Below, piece by piece: positions 5,062 through 10,495 of a DNA stretch of 64,000 nucleotides. The position numbers and the translations under genes are program-made. Source of the stretch: Thermoanaerobaculia bacterium (GTDB lineage Bacteria; Acidobacteriota; Thermoanaerobaculia; Multivoradales; Multivoraceae). How positions within the stretch are numbered: the stretch's first letter is position 1; each line of letters begins with the position of its first letter. The stretch covers positions 3,648,001 through 3,712,000 of the forward strand of contig OY762911.1 in the NCBI GenBank assembly GCA_963666565.1. The letters are read 5' to 3'. The notes under the pieces were generated by a model, which was not told the origin of the DNA, did no database searches, and worked only from the letters and a program-made list of their open reading frames with translations.

Positions 5062-6525
5062 ATGACGAACCTGAAGACGTCGGCCGGACTTCGGCGCAAG
5101 CCCCCATCTCCTTCGGGCAGGCGCCGCTCTGTCGCTCGGCGCCGCTCTGTCGCTCGGCCCCGCTCCGCGTCGGCCCGCCGTGGCCTGGAGCTGGCCCCGC
5201 TTCTCGGGCTGCTCGCGTTCGCCGCGGGTCTCCCGGCCGCGGCACAGCGAGCCACCTATCCGCCGGAGGAGTTCGCCGAACGACGGGCGCGCCTCTGCGA
5301 GCGTCTGGGCGGCGGCGCGGTGCTCATGTTCTCGGAGACGATGCCGCGTTACGGCGCCCGTTTCCGCCAGGACCACGACTTCTTCTACCTGACCGGGTAC
5401 GAAGGGCGGAACGCGGTGCTGCTGCTTGAGGTCGACGGCTGCGAAGCCCGGCTCTACCTGCCCCACCAGGGCGACCGGGAGAAGTTCATCGACGGCCCGA
5501 ACTGGCTCTACGCGCCGGAGAAGGCCGAGGGAACCGGCTTCGAGGTCGACCACCTCGCCTACCTGCCCGAGCACTTGGCCCGGCGGCGCGGCCGGCTGCC
5601 GGGAGAGGCCGGGAAGCTCCTCTGGATGCGCCTCGGCGAGCGCGACGAACTCGACCTCGCCCGCAGCGAGAAGGGCCTCTACCTCGGCCGGCGCGAGCAG
5701 AACCCCTGGGGCGGCCAGCCCACCGAGCAGGCCCACCAGATCGCGACGATCCGCGGTCGCTACCCCTACGCCGAGCTGCGCGACCTGACGCCGCACCTCG
5801 ACCGGCTGCGGACGATCAAGACGCCGCGCGAGATCGAGATCCTGCGCCGCGCCGGCAAGGTCAGCGCCGACGGCATCGCGGCTGCCATCCGGGCGACCCG
5901 CGCCGGCGGCTGGGAGTACGAACTGGAGGCCGCCGCCAAGCACGTCTTCCTGAAGCACGGCGCCGAGATGGAGGCGTACCCTGCGATCGTCGGCTCAGGG
6001 CCGAACGGCCTGATCTGGCACTGGGTCAGGAACGACCGGCAGTTGCAGACCGGCGACCTCGTCGTCATGGACTACGGCGCCTCCTTCGCCTACATGACGA
6101 TGGACATCACGCGCACCTGGCCGGTTACGGGCAAGTTCGACGAAGTCCAGGAGCGCGCCTACCGCGCCGTGCTCGAAGCGCAGAAGGCGATCATCGCCGC
6201 CATGCGCCCGGGCGTCACCCGGCGCGAGACCGCCGCGATCTGCCGCGAGATCTACGACCGCTGGGGCTTCGAGGACAAGCCCGCCCACGGCGCCGGCCAC
6301 TTCGTCGGCCTCTCGGTCCACGACGTCGGCGACGGCTCCCTGCCCTTCGAGCCGGGCATGGTCATCGCCGTCGAGCCGATCCTCGAGATCCCCGAGCGGA
6401 ACATCCACATCCGCATCGAGGACACGGTGCTGATCACCGACGGCGAACCGGAGATCCTGAGCGCCGCAGTGCCGAAGGAAGTCGATGCTCTGCTGGCGCT
6501 GGTGGGTGGAGAACCCCCTCCCTGA
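5062..6525 (+). CDS. Xaa-Pro aminopeptidase family (M24) peptidase, secreted
   Basis: FRQDHDFFYLTG N-domain, DYGA..DITRT, HFVGLSVHD, AVEP and RIEDTV metal ligands; signal peptide ending AAAQ. Start could lie slightly downstream. Confidence 0.9.
   Translation: MTNLKTSAGLRRKPPSPSGRRRSVARRRSVARPRSASARRGLELAPLLGLLAFAAGLPAAAQRATYPPEEFAERRARLCERLGGGAVLMFSETMPRYGARFRQDHDFFYLTGYEGRNAVLLLEVDGCEARLYLPHQGDREKFIDGPNWLYAPEKAEGTGFEVDHLAYLPEHLARRRGRLPGEAGKLLWMRLGERDELDLARSEKGLYLGRREQNPWGGQPTEQAHQIATIRGRYPYAELRDLTPHLDRLRTIKTPREIEILRRAGKVSADGIAAAIRATRAGGWEYELEAAAKHVFLKHGAEMEAYPAIVGSGPNGLIWHWVRNDRQLQTGDLVVMDYGASFAYMTMDITRTWPVTGKFDEVQERAYRAVLEAQKAIIAAMRPGVTRRETAAICREIYDRWGFEDKPAHGAGHFVGLSVHDVGDGSLPFEPGMVIAVEPILEIPERNIHIRIEDTVLITDGEPEILSAAVPKEVDALLALVGGEPPP
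5120..5155 (+). repeat. 18-bp perfect tandem duplication GGCGCCGCTCTGTCGCTC x2, followed by a degenerate third unit
   Basis: Read directly; encodes RRRSVA-RRRSVA-RPRSAS in the peptidase N-region. Confidence 0.9.
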
Positions 6526-7798
6526 CGAGCCGAGCCACCAGGGTCAGCTTTCCCCCGGCATCCAGGCAGTCGGGCAGATCCTCGATGGCGAACTCGTCAG
6601 CCGTCGTCGCGAACCGGAGCGCCGGCCACACGCCGGCCGGCAGCCTGAGTTCCCGGCCACCGAACCGGAGGAGGCACGACTCCCCGTCCGTCACGGCTTC
6701 GGTAAGCAGCCCGGCCCGGCGCCTTACCCGCGAGCGGGGCGTCAGCCGGTCTCCGTGGAGCCGCTGGCTGAGCAGGTCCGTGAACAGGGGTACGTCGGCG
6801 GCGAGGACCTCGTCCGCGAAGCGGCGCCACACGACCTCGGCATCGAATCGCGACTGCACGAACGCCAGCTTCTCGCCGAACAGGCGCTCTCGCTCGGCCA
6901 GGGGGAACTCCTCGCGAGCGAAGTCGCGAGGAAGATTCCGGCGCAGCGATTCTTCCTCGAGCGCCGCCGCGGCGACGCTCTCGACGAGGAACTCGGCCCA
7001 CGTGAACGCCGTGAGCCCGAGCGTGACGTGCAACGACGTCTGCCCTGTCGAACGGGCCGAGTGCATCAGACCTCGTGGAAGGTAGAGGGCGCTGCCCGGG
7101 CCGAGCTCGAACTCCTCGCTGACGTCGCCGGGAGGCGTACCGCGTTCGAAGCCCTGGCCCCGGAGTGGCAGTTTCACCTTGGTGTCGTAGATCGACCACC
7201 GCTTGGTGCCGCTGATCTGCAACACGAAGACGTCGTGGGTGTCCCAATGCGGGGCGAACCCCTGCGCCTCGGGCGGCGTGAGATACACGTTGGTCTGGGC
7301 CCGCGACGAGAAGCGCCGTCCGAGCGCGCCGCACAACCGAGCCAGCGTCGGTACGCGCGTTTGAAGCTGGTTGAAGATGACGGTCGCGCCGTCGTCGAAG
7401 TGCCTGGCGACCTCAAGCGGCTGGACCCTGCCGGCGTCGTTCGCGTACTCGCGGGAGGCAACGTCACCGTCGGCACGAATCAGCTTGATGTCGCGATGAC
7501 CGGCCGAGTGGGTGCCGAGCACGGTGTCGAGGTCGCTCACCGAGAGCAGCCCGGCGTAGTACGCCGGCGCGTCGCGCCGGATGTGAAGAAACCGTTGCTC
7601 GTAGTAGTCGTTCTCGAACTCCGCCGGCGGCAGCGGATCGAGGAGCCAGGCGAACCAGTCGCGGTCGTGACGTCCGACCGCCCGCGGTCGGGCGCTCGGA
7701 CCGTGACGCTGGTGACGCGCGGACGCGCCGCCAGGGTTCGCCGATCCCGGCCCGGTGTGGTCCGTCGTCATCCGGGCGCTTCCTGCGTCGTGGTCCAT
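6434..7798 (-). CDS. JmjC/Cupin_4 Fe(II)/2-oxoglutarate oxygenase (RoxA/NO66/MINA-like) with C-terminal winged helix
   Basis: FENDYYEQRFLHI, NVYLTPP..QGFAPHWDTHDVFVLQISGTKRW (HxD), LYLPRGLMHSA (distal His), SLHVT; C-terminal LVARLVREGVL. Start ATG 7798 or 7771. Confidence 0.92.
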   Translation of the reverse strand: MDHDAGSARMTTDHTGPGSANPGGASARHQRHGPSARPRAVGRHDRDWFAWLLDPLPPAEFENDYYEQRFLHIRRDAPAYYAGLLSVSDLDTVLGTHSAGHRDIKLIRADGDVASREYANDAGRVQPLEVARHFDDGATVIFNQLQTRVPTLARLCGALGRRFSSRAQTNVYLTPPEAQGFAPHWDTHDVFVLQISGTKRWSIYDTKVKLPLRGQGFERGTPPGDVSEEFELGPGSALYLPRGLMHSARSTGQTSLHVTLGLTAFTWAEFLVESVAAAALEEESLRRNLPRDFAREEFPLAERERLFGEKLAFVQSRFDAEVVWRRFADEVLAADVPLFTDLLSQRLHGDRLTPRSRVRRRAGLLTEAVTDGESCLLRFGGRELRLPAGVWPALRFATTADEFAIEDLPDCLDAGGKLTLVARLVREGVLHPPAPAEHRLPSALRRSGSPVRRR

Positions 7799-7842
7799 CG
7801 TGGTTCGTTCTCGCGCATTGGCTCCGGCAATCGGGCCGCAGC

Positions 7843-7871
7843 TTGACACCCAAGGCCCGCATCTCTACCAT
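7843..7871 (+). promoter_or_regulatory. Sigma70-type promoter for the small lipopeptide gene
   Basis: TTGACA (7843-7848), 17-nt spacer, TACCAT (7866-7871); AGGAG RBS at 7904-7908. Confidence 0.75.
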
Positions 7872-7915
7872 ACCGGACTCAGTCGGTCTCATTTTCCGAA
7901 CTCAGGAGCAAGGTC

Positions 7916-8164
7916 ATGGGCAGATCCGAGAACAGCGAGCCTGAAGTCAATCGTCCCGGCACGCCGATGTCGCTGACGGACGAGGACATCGCCACTGTCC
8001 GAGTCGATCGCCGCTCGTTCCTTTCTCGCGCGGTCGCGGTCGGATCGCTCGCGGCGGCCGCCGCCTTGACGACGGCCTGCCCCGGCGGGACCGACTCCGA
8101 CGGCGAGGGCGACGCCGCTGCCCCGGCCGAATCCGAGCAGGCGACGGACTCCGATCAGCAGTAG
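7916..8164 (+). CDS. Small Tat-signal lipopeptide with acidic TDSD-repeat mature region (candidate modified-peptide precursor)
   Basis: 82 aa with a good RBS; LTDEDIAT segment, DRRSFL twin-arginine motif, hydrophobic stretch, LTTA-C lipobox-like site; mature CPGGTDSDGEGDAAAPAESEQATDSDQQ. Confidence 0.8.
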   Translation: MGRSENSEPEVNRPGTPMSLTDEDIATVRVDRRSFLSRAVAVGSLAAAAALTTACPGGTDSDGEGDAAAPAESEQATDSDQQ

Positions 8165-8169
8165 AAGCG

Positions 8170-9312
8170 CTGTCCCTGCGCAGGGCGATCTTCTGGATCC
8201 ATCTGGCGGTCGGCGTCGCCGCCGCCGTCGTTGTCCTCATGCTGGCGGTGACCGGCGTGATCCTCACCTACGAGGCGCAGCTCAACGAATGGGCGCTGCG
8301 CGACTATCGCGCGGACCCGCCCTCCCCGGGCGTCGCGCCGCTCGGGCTCGACGACTTGATCGCGCGCGTCTCAGGCGGGCCGGCCGCCGGTCTCGTCACT
8401 TCCGCCGCGTTGCACAGGGATCCGCGACAGCCGGCGGTCGTCGGGCTCGACGATGGCGCCACCGTCTATGTCGACCGCTTCACCGGCGAGCGGCTGGGCA
8501 ACGGCGACACGCGGACGCGACGCTTCCTCCGCGGCGTCATGCACTGGCACCGGTGGTTCGCCCTCGACGGGGAGCACCGGATCATCGGCCGGACGGCGGT
8601 GGCAATCGCCAACCTCGGGTTCCTGTTTCTGCTCGTCAGCGGGGTCTACCTCTGGTGGCCGTCGACCCGCAGCCGCGCCGCCTGGAAACACGCCCTGTGG
8701 TTTCGGCCGCGCCTCAGGGGACGGGCGCGCGACTACAACTGGCACAAGGTGATCGGCTTCTGGTCGGCCGTTCCGCTCGTCATCATCGTCTTCAGCGGGG
8801 CCACCATCTCGTATCAATGGGCCGCCGACCTCGTCCATCGGCTGGCGGGCGACACGCCGCCGTTTCAGCAGTCGCCGCGGCCGCTGTCGGACGCGCGGGA
8901 GACTCCCTCCGTCGCGCCGGACCCGGTGACCCCGCTCTTCGAGCTGCAGGCACTGGCCGCGCAGGCCGCCGCCGAGACGCCCGGATGGCGGACGCTCACG
9001 ATCGACCTTCCCGAGGCGATTCACGATCCCGTCGTGGTCACGGTCGACCGCGGGACGGGCCGCCAGCCGTCGAAGCGCGAGGACCTGCTGTTCGACCGGG
9101 CGACCGGCGAACTGGTCGGGCGCGCCGGCTATCCGACCTTCACGCGCGGCTTCAAGATTCGCCGTTGGCTGCGGTTTGCCCACACCGGAGAGGTGTACGG
9201 CGTGGTCGGGCAGACGATCGCCGGCCTCGTGTCCCTCGGCGTAGCCGTCCTGGTCTGGACCGGTCTCGCGATGAGCTGGCGCCGTTTCTTCGGCCGCACC
9301 GGCCGGACCTGA
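8170..9312 (+). CDS. PepSY-associated TM helix protein (iron-uptake-associated membrane reductase family)
   Basis: Frame extends upstream of the called ATG 8239 to CTG 8170 (LSLRRAIFWIHLAVG..LAVTG); conserved His motifs WIHL, MHWHRWF, NWHKVIGFW, RFAHTGE; VYVDRFTGE PepSY motif. Confidence 0.88.
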   Translation: MSLRRAIFWIHLAVGVAAAVVVLMLAVTGVILTYEAQLNEWALRDYRADPPSPGVAPLGLDDLIARVSGGPAAGLVTSAALHRDPRQPAVVGLDDGATVYVDRFTGERLGNGDTRTRRFLRGVMHWHRWFALDGEHRIIGRTAVAIANLGFLFLLVSGVYLWWPSTRSRAAWKHALWFRPRLRGRARDYNWHKVIGFWSAVPLVIIVFSGATISYQWAADLVHRLAGDTPPFQQSPRPLSDARETPSVAPDPVTPLFELQALAAQAAAETPGWRTLTIDLPEAIHDPVVVTVDRGTGRQPSKREDLLFDRATGELVGRAGYPTFTRGFKIRRWLRFAHTGEVYGVVGQTIAGLVSLGVAVLVWTGLAMSWRRFFGRTGRT

Positions 9313-9388: not shown

Positions 9389-10495
9389 CTACTCGGCGCC
9401 GGTGCTGGCGCCGCTCAGGGCCTCCGACTCGAGGAGGCGGGCGCCGCGGAGGGTGCCGCCCATCGAGTAGTTGCCTTCGTGGCAGGCGTACTCGTAGACG
9501 AGGCCGTCGGCGGCCTTCCACAGGTACTCGCCGGTCCACGGCGCTTCCCAGACGGTGTCGTCCTCGACGGTGAAGTTGTAGATCACGTTGCCATCGTGCT
9601 GCACGGAGAAGCGCTCGACGACGTGGGTGTTCTCGGAACCGCCGCGGAAGCCGCGTCCGCCGACGCGGAAGTTCGTCGTGTCGACGACGAGGGTGTCGCC
9701 TTCCCACCAGCCGATCGAGTCGCCCAGCCACTTCGTGACCTCGGGACCCGGATGCTCCGAGTTCAGGCGCACGATGCGGGCGTCGTGGATCATCTCGAGC
9801 AGGATCATGACGTGAGTCTCGGTCTGCACGATCCGCTTGTAGTTGTTGTACAGGCTCGGGAACGTCGGCGCGGCGCCGGTGAAGCCGGCGAGGCAGCGCT
9901 CGCTCGTGGGGAGCGACTCGGGGCCGTCGTAGGGGCCGGGGCCGTCGTGCTCGACCCACCAGGCCGTTCCGTCATTCGGACGGATGAGGCCGGCGAGAGC
10001 GGTCCTCATCCGCTGCTGCGCCGCCGCCGTCATGGACGGCATCCGGCCGTTCGGCGGATCGATGATGATCGAGGTCGGGATCTGCCCGTCGACCAAGTAG
10101 GTGTCGGTTCCCCGGTCGATCCAGAACAGGTTGTAGCCGCCGACGTTGCCGGCGCCGAACTCGTTGCCGCCGCCGGCGGTGTGTTCCAGACCGACGACCT
10201 TGGCCCCGCCCTCGGGCGGCGCCTCGCGGTTCGCGTCCGACTGGGCGACCGCGCCTTCCTGGATCAGCCGCTCTTCCTCCGCGATCTCCGCGGCTTCCTC
10301 GGGCGTCAGGTACGCCCGCTCGCCGAGATGCACCGGCCGCTCCAGCGGAGTCAGCGTGGCGGCGTCGTAGGTGCCGGTCAGGTCGGGACGGCCGCTCGCG
10401 GTTCGTGGAATGTCGTCGCTCTGCGCGGCCAGGGCCGGGGCGAAGGCGAGGGCCAGAACGAGAACCGAAGACAGGCTTGCGGTGCGCTTCATCAT
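9389..10495 (-). CDS. Secreted uncharacterised protein (GRPDLTG...YEYACHEGN family)
   Basis: Signal peptide; conserved-looking motifs GRPDLTG, IIDPPNGRMP, ERC, GDSIGWWEGDTLVVDTTNF, YEYACHEGNY. Confidence 0.8.
   Translation of the reverse strand: MMKRTASLSSVLVLALAFAPALAAQSDDIPRTASGRPDLTGTYDAATLTPLERPVHLGERAYLTPEEAAEIAEEERLIQEGAVAQSDANREAPPEGGAKVVGLEHTAGGGNEFGAGNVGGYNLFWIDRGTDTYLVDGQIPTSIIIDPPNGRMPSMTAAAQQRMRTALAGLIRPNDGTAWWVEHDGPGPYDGPESLPTSERCLAGFTGAAPTFPSLYNNYKRIVQTETHVMILLEMIHDARIVRLNSEHPGPEVTKWLGDSIGWWEGDTLVVDTTNFRVGGRGFRGGSENTHVVERFSVQHDGNVIYNFTVEDDTVWEAPWTGEYLWKAADGLVYEYACHEGNYSMGGTLRGARLLESEALSGASTGAE

Follow-up and report, generated by a model that had tools for sequence, protein, structure and literature searches.

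In cinnamycin, beta-hydroxyaspartate is made in a ribosomal peptide by the 2-oxoglutarate (2OG) oxygenase CinX, which belongs to another oxygenase family than the JmjC enzymes considered here, and the resulting residue binds a lipid. Among the Fe/2OG JmjC hydroxylases, BipG of biphenomycin (acting on Orn; PMC12707348) and CzlI of curacozole (acting on Phe; PMC11575548) modify nearby-encoded precursors of peptides that are synthesized ribosomally and modified post-translationally (RiPPs), according to the available parts of the two reports. RiPP-lipoprotein hybrids, the diacylglycerol (DAG)-RiPPs, were described in 2026, and the accessible portion of that report places their precursors in the lipoprotein pathway (PMC13056109); bufferins are presented in the accessible text as RiPP metallophores made with a signal peptide (PMC12710340, PMC13056109). 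For PepSY_TM membrane proteins, two His-ligated b-type hemes are described in the available part of the FoxB study (bioRxiv 10.1101/2021.01.28.428567), and the available part of PMC13038864 describes known members as reducing metal complexes and CrpH as supporting copper supply or copper-dependent oxidases. Here, we analyze a three-gene locus in which a JmjC_2 oxygenase, a small precursor-like peptide and a PepSY_TM protein are encoded side by side in Thermoanaerobaculia bacterium (assembly GCA_963666565.1, contig OY762911.1, positions 3,648,001 to 3,712,000). This stretch of 64,000 nucleotides is called the window below, and all coordinates are counted within it.

The three genes are a JmjC_2 Fe(II)/2OG oxygenase of NO66/MINA53-like (ribosomal-oxygenase) architecture on the minus strand (6434-7849; Pfam, PDB sequence search and Foldseek), an open reading frame (ORF) of 82 amino acids on the plus strand with an N-terminal leader, a twin-arginine translocation (Tat)-type signal, a Cys and an acidic tail (7916-8164; 92 homologous clusters, alignments and substitution ratios), and a PepSY_TM membrane protein on the plus strand with four His ahead of four hydrophobic segments (8170-9312; Pfam PepSY_TM, E 3.5e-49). 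A first-pass annotation of the window, made from its letters and a list of ORFs, had already described the JmjC enzyme as standing head-to-head with the small ORF, with an intact HxD...H triad, and had picked out in the ORF an LTDEDIAT segment, a twin Arg, a Cys and a 28-residue C-terminal part containing TDSD twice; every one of these features was found where it had been placed. We propose that the three genes form one conserved module in which a RiPP-like precursor is modified by the enzyme, exported, anchored and put to work with the PepSY_TM protein, a reading to which we give a probability of about one half.

The evidence that carries this reading is the persistence of the gene neighbourhood. 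Scanning species-representative genomes with the peptide alignment gave 58 loci, all in Acidobacteriota of various orders. The JmjC gene adjoins the peptide gene in 57 of them (54-97% identity; tblastn, E <= 1e-5), and a PepSY_TM gene of the window type follows the peptide gene in 49 (tblastn). A divergent second PepSY_TM lineage is found in five more, namely L062, L064 (Pfam E 3.5e-57), L065, L068 and L072 (tblastn), so that one lineage or the other follows the peptide gene in 54 of the 58 loci; the four that lack it are L092, L093, L094 and L045, the last at a contig end. The M24 peptidase neighbour upstream in the window is kept in only 7 of the 58, and beyond JmjC_2 no enzyme gene is conserved in the module across these loci. 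Three gene orders occur: JmjC and peptide are divergent in most loci, JmjC is followed by the peptide gene in L093 and L094, and the peptide gene stands directly ahead of JmjC in genomes G192-G194 (loci L095-L097), where in L095 the peptide ORF runs up to 6049 and JmjC opens with an ATG at 6050. In L093, L094 and G192-G194 the peptide-JmjC pair occurs without PepSY_TM. Conversely, the peptide gene was adjacent in 14 of the 15 genomes with a JmjC orthologue, and in G185 the gene is cut by the contig end. Thus the neighbourhood survey that the first-pass annotation had suggested bears out both the peptide-JmjC pairing and the linkage to PepSY_TM, the latter with two lineages. The tie between JmjC and the peptide is, judged from genome comparison, as strong as this approach allows within one phylum.

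The gene distribution bears on a simpler explanation, in which the JmjC protein is an ordinary ribosomal or other protein hydroxylase without a tie to its neighbours, the lipoprotein belongs to PepSY_TM and the adjacency is lineage synteny. This would agree with the full-length fold and sequence that the enzyme shares with NO66, MINA53 and YcfD, and with the restriction of the loci to Acidobacteriota, in which kinship inflates the counts. Nevertheless, the JmjC-peptide pair survives three gene orders and changes of both flanks and persists where PepSY_TM is absent, and the gene is accessory in its genus. Among 40 relatives, peptide, JmjC and PepSY_TM were each present in the same 7 of 24 genus genomes and in none of the 16 others; when 300 genomes of the order were searched, JmjC orthologues (at least 52% identity) were found in 14 of 41 other genus genomes and in none of the remaining 258. 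Its presence in only 14 of these 41 genomes speaks against a housekeeping function, and we regard an unconnected JmjC gene as the least probable explanation of the locus.

The JmjC ORF has 471 amino acids when counted from its GTG, although ATG 7798 or 7771 is a likelier start, and conservation begins at residue 62 (position 7666). Its match to Pfam JmjC_2 is far above the cut-off (92.1 bits against 22, E 2.6e-26). The catalytic barrel (6992-7348, minus strand; Pfam stretch 168-286) includes H201, D203, H263, K216 and an HxT motif (H274, T276). The Fe(II) triad H201-x-D203...H263 is encoded by the codons at 7247-7249, 7241-7243 and 7061-7063, and it is invariant in all 56 aligned homologues, three of which are only 29-30% identical. 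In that alignment (A2, 56 JmjC sequences), the columns H140, D142, K155, H202, H213 and T215 are invariant, the column numbers being different from the residue numbers of the window enzyme. The HxT motif found here is the one that the available part of Iyer et al. 2010 (PMC2938197) assigns to bacterial JmjC versions near the eukaryotic ones. The median ratio of nonsynonymous to synonymous substitution rates (dN/dS) of the gene is 0.24; the window genome has one JmjC_2 above the cut-off and no second, and an NCBIfam search with the enzyme gave no match.

Searching the PDB by sequence placed the enzyme nearest to human NO66 (1.8e-36) and MINA53 (1.3e-30), followed by YxbC (1.8e-11) and YcfD (4e-5). 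An AlphaFold2 model (predicted local distance difference test, pLDDT, 83.7) was aligned by Foldseek with NO66 across about 440 columns (E 2.8e-31), then with MINA53 and YcfD, and because of these alignments the modelled protein is assigned the three-domain ribosomal-oxygenase architecture of JmjC, helical and C-terminal winged-helix-like domains. By sequence similarity, the enzyme is an NO66/MINA53-like protein of the ribosomal-oxygenase (ROX) type and no orthologue of YcfD. A grouping with YcfD/RoxA, active on ribosomal L16, had been put forward as evidence that would speak against a peptide substrate, and the result is divided: structurally the enzyme does belong to the ROX family, but YcfD itself is a distant match (E 4e-5) and the gene is accessory.

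The small ORF is a real gene family under purifying selection. Searching 5.8 billion proteins, restricted to lengths of 45-144 amino acids, gave 92 protein clusters at E <= 0.01, which are 49-94% identical and 68-141 amino acids long; the gene is single-copy in the window genome. Aligning the window peptide with 32 relatives (A1) left M1, L20, R32, R33, S34, F35, R38, G43 and C55 invariant, and aligning 53 peptides taken from the genome loci (A3) added D22, V30, D31, S37 and D60 as invariant, with T21, D24, I25, G58, T59, S61 and D62 conserved at 90% or more. The median dN/dS was about 0 for C55-G63, rising to 0.28 over residues 18-54 and to 0.60 over residues 1-17 (Nei-Gojobori, all pairs with dS 0.1-2, the pairs not being independent). 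The region of strongest constraint, CPGGTDSDG (8078-8104, plus strand), includes Cys55 within a lipobox-like LTTAC and is, from its conservation and dN/dS, the candidate modification site. It is followed by an acidic low-complexity tail with ATDSDQ-type repeats, whose copy number varies among relatives (8105-8161, plus strand). Among close genomes (L002-L008, L037-L094) the tail length shifts by whole 18-nucleotide ATDSDQ-type repeats, from one to six or more copies.

With the peptide, NCBIfam gave only matches below threshold, and the ESM Atlas gave unnamed clusters, in one of which 31% of the members carry TAT_signal at a score of 0.87, which serves as a lead only. The name 'BatC', which the first-pass annotation mentioned for similar peptides, was not met, and the source names shown for this family all read 'hypothetical protein'.

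Expression signals ahead of the small ORF are conserved as well. A sigma-70-type promoter, TTGACA-17-TACCAT (7843-7871, plus strand), agrees with the consensus at 10 of 12 positions, and one site of this type was found against 0.0 expected in shuffled sequence. The ribosome-binding site AGGAG (7904-7908, plus strand) lies 7 nucleotides ahead of the ATG and is kept in the upstream alignment. Across the 51 aligned upstream regions TTGAC, TAnnAT and AGGAG are all kept, so that the near-consensus promoter and ribosome-binding site of the first-pass annotation are conserved. An inverted repeat (7872-7887) lies directly past the -10 element, and distant loci have an imperfect palindrome, TGAGAC...TTCTCA, at the same place; the repeat could be an operator or a hairpin in the 5′ untranslated region. 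In addition, RNA contigs from two libraries of one study overlap the small ORF of a relative that is about 95% identical (X1, 7933-8288; X3, 7948-8152), and X1 crosses into the start of PepSY_TM. Since such libraries can hold DNA, this coverage is a hint only. None of the RNA-library contigs covers the JmjC gene or most of PepSY_TM, which says nothing on the expression of these two genes.

The connection to RiPPs comes from paralogues of the enzyme. In the same order, 42 genomes have JmjC homologues at 27-36% identity, and 20 paralogue loci (30-36% identity; three that the first search had given, together with the 17 new loci of highest score) were examined. Homologues of the LanB N- or C-terminal part were found within about 7 kb in 15 of the 20, often together with C39-ABC and HlyD genes; in 16 of the 20 there were short ORFs whose leaders are of the double-glycine type. 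Many of these leaders read (E/V)PL(T/S)DEDLESV(A/S)GG and are followed by cores rich in Cys, Ser, Thr and Asn, the pattern having been written after the first precursor had been seen. The window peptide has LTDEDIATV (7973-7999, plus strand; LTDEDIAT is residues 20-27), a leader-like motif by alignment A3 and by its likeness to double-glycine-type leaders. It aligns with the L(T/S)DEDLESV-GG leaders, VD replacing GG and RRSFL following directly. A post hoc pattern, L[ST]D[EDA]D[LIM]..V, has two matches among the 9.57 million residues of the genome's six-frame translation, and this peptide holds one of them. The first-pass reading of the segment as a leader thus gained a RiPP-type counterpart beside the paralogues, but LTDEDI itself is missing in the clade with a JmjC of about 52% identity.

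The loci with LanB are of note in their own right. L022 (G034:C5:603000-622900), L023 and L099-L114 are split-dehydratase LanB-type clusters with an NO66-like JmjC_2, C39-ABC and HlyD, and their precursors combine (E/V)PL(T/S)DEDLESV-GG leaders with Cys/Ser/Thr/Asn-rich, often repetitive cores. From their gene content, they look like a hydroxylated lanthipeptide-like class; no description of an L022-type LanB/JmjC class was met in the literature, in which no search was aimed at it.

The C-terminal domain of the JmjC enzyme (6491-6757, minus strand; domain model and Foldseek) resembles RiPP recognition elements (RREs). When folded alone, it gave a pLDDT of 89.0 and showed four strands followed by helices, and Foldseek returned ROX proteins at the top and then almost only RREs: McbB (6gri, E 1.4e-2), TruD, LynD, ThcOx, PqqD 5sxy, TigE, the PbtF RRE 8t19 and TbiB1. 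The RRE domains of McbB, TruD, LynD, PqqD, PbtF and TbiB1 scored E 0.014-0.18, and the modelled domain is of RRE type at the level of the fold only. The available part of PMC12710340 also mentions RRE-like folds fused to PF08007, with bacterial homologues in RiPP-like contexts. The winged helix that was first proposed to bind the leader is thus RRE-like in fold, but as ROX proteins share this fold, it is no proof of leader binding.

We also predicted the complex of the JmjC enzyme and the peptide, a check proposed in the first-pass annotation. The score was 0.51 (0.50-0.53 in three runs), compared with 0.00 for the best of three controls. Of 80 solved complexes, 58 passed the mark set for this score, as did 2 of 110 mismatched pairs; at 0.60 or less it was passed by only 7 of the 80 solved complexes and by both passing mismatches. 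The runs agreed in at least 37% of contacts, the partner pLDDT was at least 44, and no interface is reported. On the whole, the simplest reading of models and sequences is that the peptide is a substrate of the JmjC enzyme, and this reading is favoured because the RiPP context of the paralogues, the likeness of the leaders and the RRE-like domain fit together.

Export by the Tat pathway is suggested by VDRRSFLSR and the hydrophobic stretch behind it (8003-8077, plus strand; alignment A3), in which RR is residues 32-33 and RRSFL residues 32-36. The Tat consensus is S/T-R-R-x-F-L-K, and D-R-R-S-F-L-S-R followed by a hydrophobic region is invariant in the 53 sequences. The genome encodes TatC (E 3.5e-68), and it encodes Lgt (E 2.9e-45) and LspA (E 1.3e-39) as well; Cys55 is invariant in 53 of 53 peptides. 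It is plausible that the use of Tat is a sign of prior modification of the peptide.

JmjC/2OG hydroxylases act as oxygen sensors elsewhere (FIH, PHD), and the invariance of R32, R33 and R38 allows a different role for the signal region, in which the JmjC enzyme would modify it, for example at an Arg of RR, and hydroxylation would report O2, iron or 2OG by gating Tat export of the acidic lipoprotein, itself no more than an accessory of PepSY_TM. Relatives of YcfD type hydroxylate Arg, according to PDB titles. Tat, however, already accounts for the invariance of RR; NO66 and MINA53, which are His hydroxylases, are much closer to the enzyme than YcfD is, and no precedent was found in the literature. 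We regard such a sensor as very unlikely.

In the PepSY_TM protein, His 11, 127, 192 and 338 are kept in all 44 sequences, one before each hydrophobic segment. These four invariant His fit two b-type hemes as in FoxB, so that a reductase of the heme type is expected. The first-pass annotation had the gene starting 5 nucleotides after the peptide stop, which holds only if CTG 8170-8172 is used, since no canonical start precedes 8239. This CTG, 5 nucleotides past the TAG of the peptide, occupies the position of the ATG of MSLRR in most relatives, and the first ATG (8239) falls within the first membrane helix. A canonical start at the MSLRR position is lacking in 6 of 45 peptide-PepSY_TM junctions (the window, L037, L038, L050, L053 and L059), which represent three sequence configurations, and the ORF opens 2-14 nucleotides beyond the peptide TAG. 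The recurrence of ATG-less junctions at this short distance suggests, from sequence, tight translational coupling of the two genes, and junctions that lack ATG while the ORF is intact suggest re-initiation at a non-canonical codon. In the region 8162-8240 of the window, the ATG was lost through a deletion of 20 nucleotides relative to close kin, leaving the ORF intact.

As the PepSY_TM frame is open from 7945 and the ATG-less junctions recur, a -1 frameshift or a fusion of peptide and PepSY_TM was also weighed. It was rejected because a leading signal peptide would invert the topology of PepSY_TM, and DNA as rich in GC as this often has open frames. Locus L033 (G018:C132:11479-15603) holds a second PepSY_TM paralogue (55% identity), with a Sec-type lipoprotein ORF of 134 amino acids about 430 nucleotides upstream. 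Neither a Tat peptide nor JmjC occurs within 1.5 kb of it, so the peptide is not a general companion of PepSY_TM.

Taken together, we envisage the following course. The N-terminus of the precursor would unite a twin-arginine signal with the leader motif LTDEDIATV, a legacy of RiPP leaders of the double-glycine type. The cytoplasmic NO66-like JmjC would dock on this conserved N-terminal part, probably via its RRE-like C-terminal domain, and would hydroxylate a residue of the invariant CPGGTDSDG. Which residue is a guess, with Asp60 or Asp62 of GGTDSDG as the best candidates from conservation. Tat would then carry the modified peptide out of the cytoplasm, and its cleavage and lipidation at Cys55 would give a membrane-tethered acidic peptide partnered with a co-translated PepSY_TM di-heme reductase. 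The peptide would plausibly bind a metal, Fe(III) or possibly Cu(II), for reduction by the PepSY_TM protein. Both the Asp hydroxylation and the metal capture with PepSY_TM are putative.

Several observations weigh against this course of events. All support for the function of the module is comparative or predicted, and the locus counts are not independent because all loci come from one phylum. NO66, MINA53 and YcfD, which have the same three-domain fold, hydroxylate ribosomal proteins, and since they share the C-terminal domain also, its RRE-like fold does not prove that it binds a leader; a ribosomal substrate of the window enzyme found no evidence in the comparative analysis. The predicted complex of JmjC and peptide is weak. 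In the clade with a JmjC of about 52% identity LTDEDI is absent, and the peptide still lies beside JmjC; what is common to all peptides including this clade is only TV-R-x-(D/N)RRSFL-x-RAV, and DSD is the sole feature of the tail that the clade keeps. The TIGR01409 (TAT_signal) model gave the peptide 13.8 bits (E 0.056), under its cut-off of 16.7. The PepSY_TM frame has no ATG, GTG or TTG upstream of 8239, and no transporter, uptake gene, metal gene or metal-related regulator was identified in the module. Furthermore, the available part of PMC13056109 gives an acidic residue after the lipobox Cys as a signal for retention in the inner membrane. The peptide has Pro after Cys55 and no such acidic residue, so that its product might end up away from PepSY_TM.

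The lipobox is the point at which an alternative role of the peptide has to be considered. In the window it is the non-canonical LTTAC, with A at -1 and T at -3, and 5 of the 33 aligned members have Arg at -1. A peptide with so imperfect a lipobox might be an uncleaved signal-anchor, a membrane anchor or regulator whose conserved cytoplasmic N-terminal segment recruits JmjC near PepSY_TM, where the enzyme hydroxylates another protein, ribosomal or of the envelope, or obtains Fe(II) that the reductase has made. In keeping with this, conservation of the peptide is highest in the N-terminal and signal region, ROX enzymes act on proteins according to PDB titles, and the weak predicted binding (0.51 against 0.00 in controls) would fit equally. 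However, selection is strongest on CPGGTDSDG, outside the membrane segment, L093, L094 and G192-G194 keep the peptide-JmjC pair although they lack PepSY_TM, and the paralogues lie in RiPP clusters that contain precursors. We consider an anchoring role unlikely on these grounds.

The tail raises a further question, which concerns only the product. Its length is free to vary, as in a disordered spacer, the shortest tails having about 12 residues and the longest more than 80. This weighs against the course proposed above and would suit a bulk polyanion. The peptide might thus be a RiPP-like substrate of JmjC whose product is no metallophore but an envelope or surface polyanion (for cation buffering, adhesion or interaction with minerals) or a signal, the reducing power of PepSY_TM then serving some other purpose. 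No Fur-type box was recognisable in the conserved upstream region, in which the alignment of 51 regions shows only the promoter, the ribosome-binding site and the weak inverted repeat, and this lack of a metal-regulation signal would agree with such a product. Sites rich in Asp, Ser and Thr bind hard cations, however, and the invariant His argue for a working heme reductase. The function of PepSY_TM proteins points both ways: known members reduce metal complexes, but they are not limited to ferrisiderophores, as CrpH supports copper-dependent oxidases (PMC13038864, available part). A product of this kind is rather unlikely in our estimate, though somewhat less so than an anchor.

The most specific form of the proposed module can be stated as follows: it would yield the first Tat-exported, diacylglycerol-anchored ribosomal metallophore, carrying beta-hydroxyaspartate in its invariant GGTDSDG, made by an NO66-like JmjC with an RRE-like domain, served by its own translationally coupled PepSY_TM heme reductase and descended from a lanthipeptide-type precursor with a swapped export route. 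In this complete form the proposal is tentative, and we think it has perhaps a slender chance of being right in every part. Should the enzyme act on the peptide, JmjC enzymes of the NO66/MINA53-like branch would gain a bacterial function and a small, tractable substrate, and the C-terminal domain of these enzymes could act as a leader-binding module. The module would also be a Tat-dependent, JmjC-modified addition to the signal-peptide RiPPs (bufferins and DAG-RiPPs) and the first link between a ribosomal peptide and a PepSY_TM reductase, which would suggest cell-bound reductive metal capture in uncultured Acidobacteriota. The likeness of the leader to those of LanB-cluster precursors would make it a concrete case of a RiPP precursor switching its export route.

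The surroundings of the module vary among the loci. In L095-L097 (G192-G194), a conserved membrane-protein ORF of 151-174 amino acids (158 in L095) without a Pfam match follows JmjC, and the peptide tails have three Cys and a DPCP end. In L096 and L097, the peptide gene has immediately upstream of it ORFs that by eye resemble a tyrosine recombinase, a hint that this variant of the module is on a mobile island. In L092, the peptide gene stands alone beside ORFs that look, by eye, like a HigB/HigA-type toxin-antitoxin pair. In the window, a secreted-looking protein of 368 amino acids with no Pfam or NCBIfam match is encoded next to the module (9389-10495, minus strand), and 19 of the 58 loci have a homologue of it (32-94% identical) no more than 6 kb from the module.

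Finally, we compared the locus with described systems. In the literature searched, supplements aside, JmjC RiPP hydroxylases and signal-peptide and lipoprotein RiPPs are known, but no description of this module was found there, and neither was a Tat-type precursor, a JmjC-modified lipoprotein precursor or a ribosomal peptide coupled to PepSY_TM. Like NO66, MINA53 and YcfD (RoxA), the window enzyme has a JmjC barrel with HxD...H, a helical domain in the middle and a winged-helix-like one at the C-terminus; it differs from them in being accessory and tied to a small exported peptide. BipG and CzlI belong to other types of biosynthetic gene cluster (MNIO and radical S-adenosylmethionine enzymes for BipG, cyanobactin-like for CzlI); CzlI is structurally nearest to YxbC whereas the window enzyme is NO66-like, and the available parts of the two reports describe no signal peptide in their precursors, unlike that of the window.

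DAG-RiPPs resemble the proposed module in that, in the accessible portion of their description, the precursor has a signal peptide and a lipobox Cys and is modified in the cytoplasm before export and lipoprotein maturation (PMC13056109); the terms 'Tat' and 'twin-arginine' are absent from the text of that report. In DAG-RiPPs and bufferins, MNIO (DUF692) enzymes modify Cys, according to the parts of the reports available, while the window has JmjC_2 and a PepSY_TM partner. FoxB and CrpH have, as far as the available text describes them, the same PepSY_TM domain with a His before each of four hydrophobic segments, which in FoxB hold the b hemes. They differ in serving diffusible ferrisiderophores or copper supply (PMC13038864), whereas the window gene appears to be translationally coupled to a ribosomal lipopeptide gene, and the window PepSY_TM, unlike FoxB and CrpH, lacks a canonical start codon. 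The JmjC paralogues of the LanB clusters are 30-36% identical to the window enzyme along almost the whole protein, with the C-terminal domain included, and their neighbouring precursors have L(T/S)DEDLESV-GG leaders resembling LTDEDIATV. These clusters have LanB N and C parts, C39-ABC, HlyD and Cys/Ser/Thr-rich cores, none of which occurs in the window, where a Tat-type signal and PepSY_TM are found instead.

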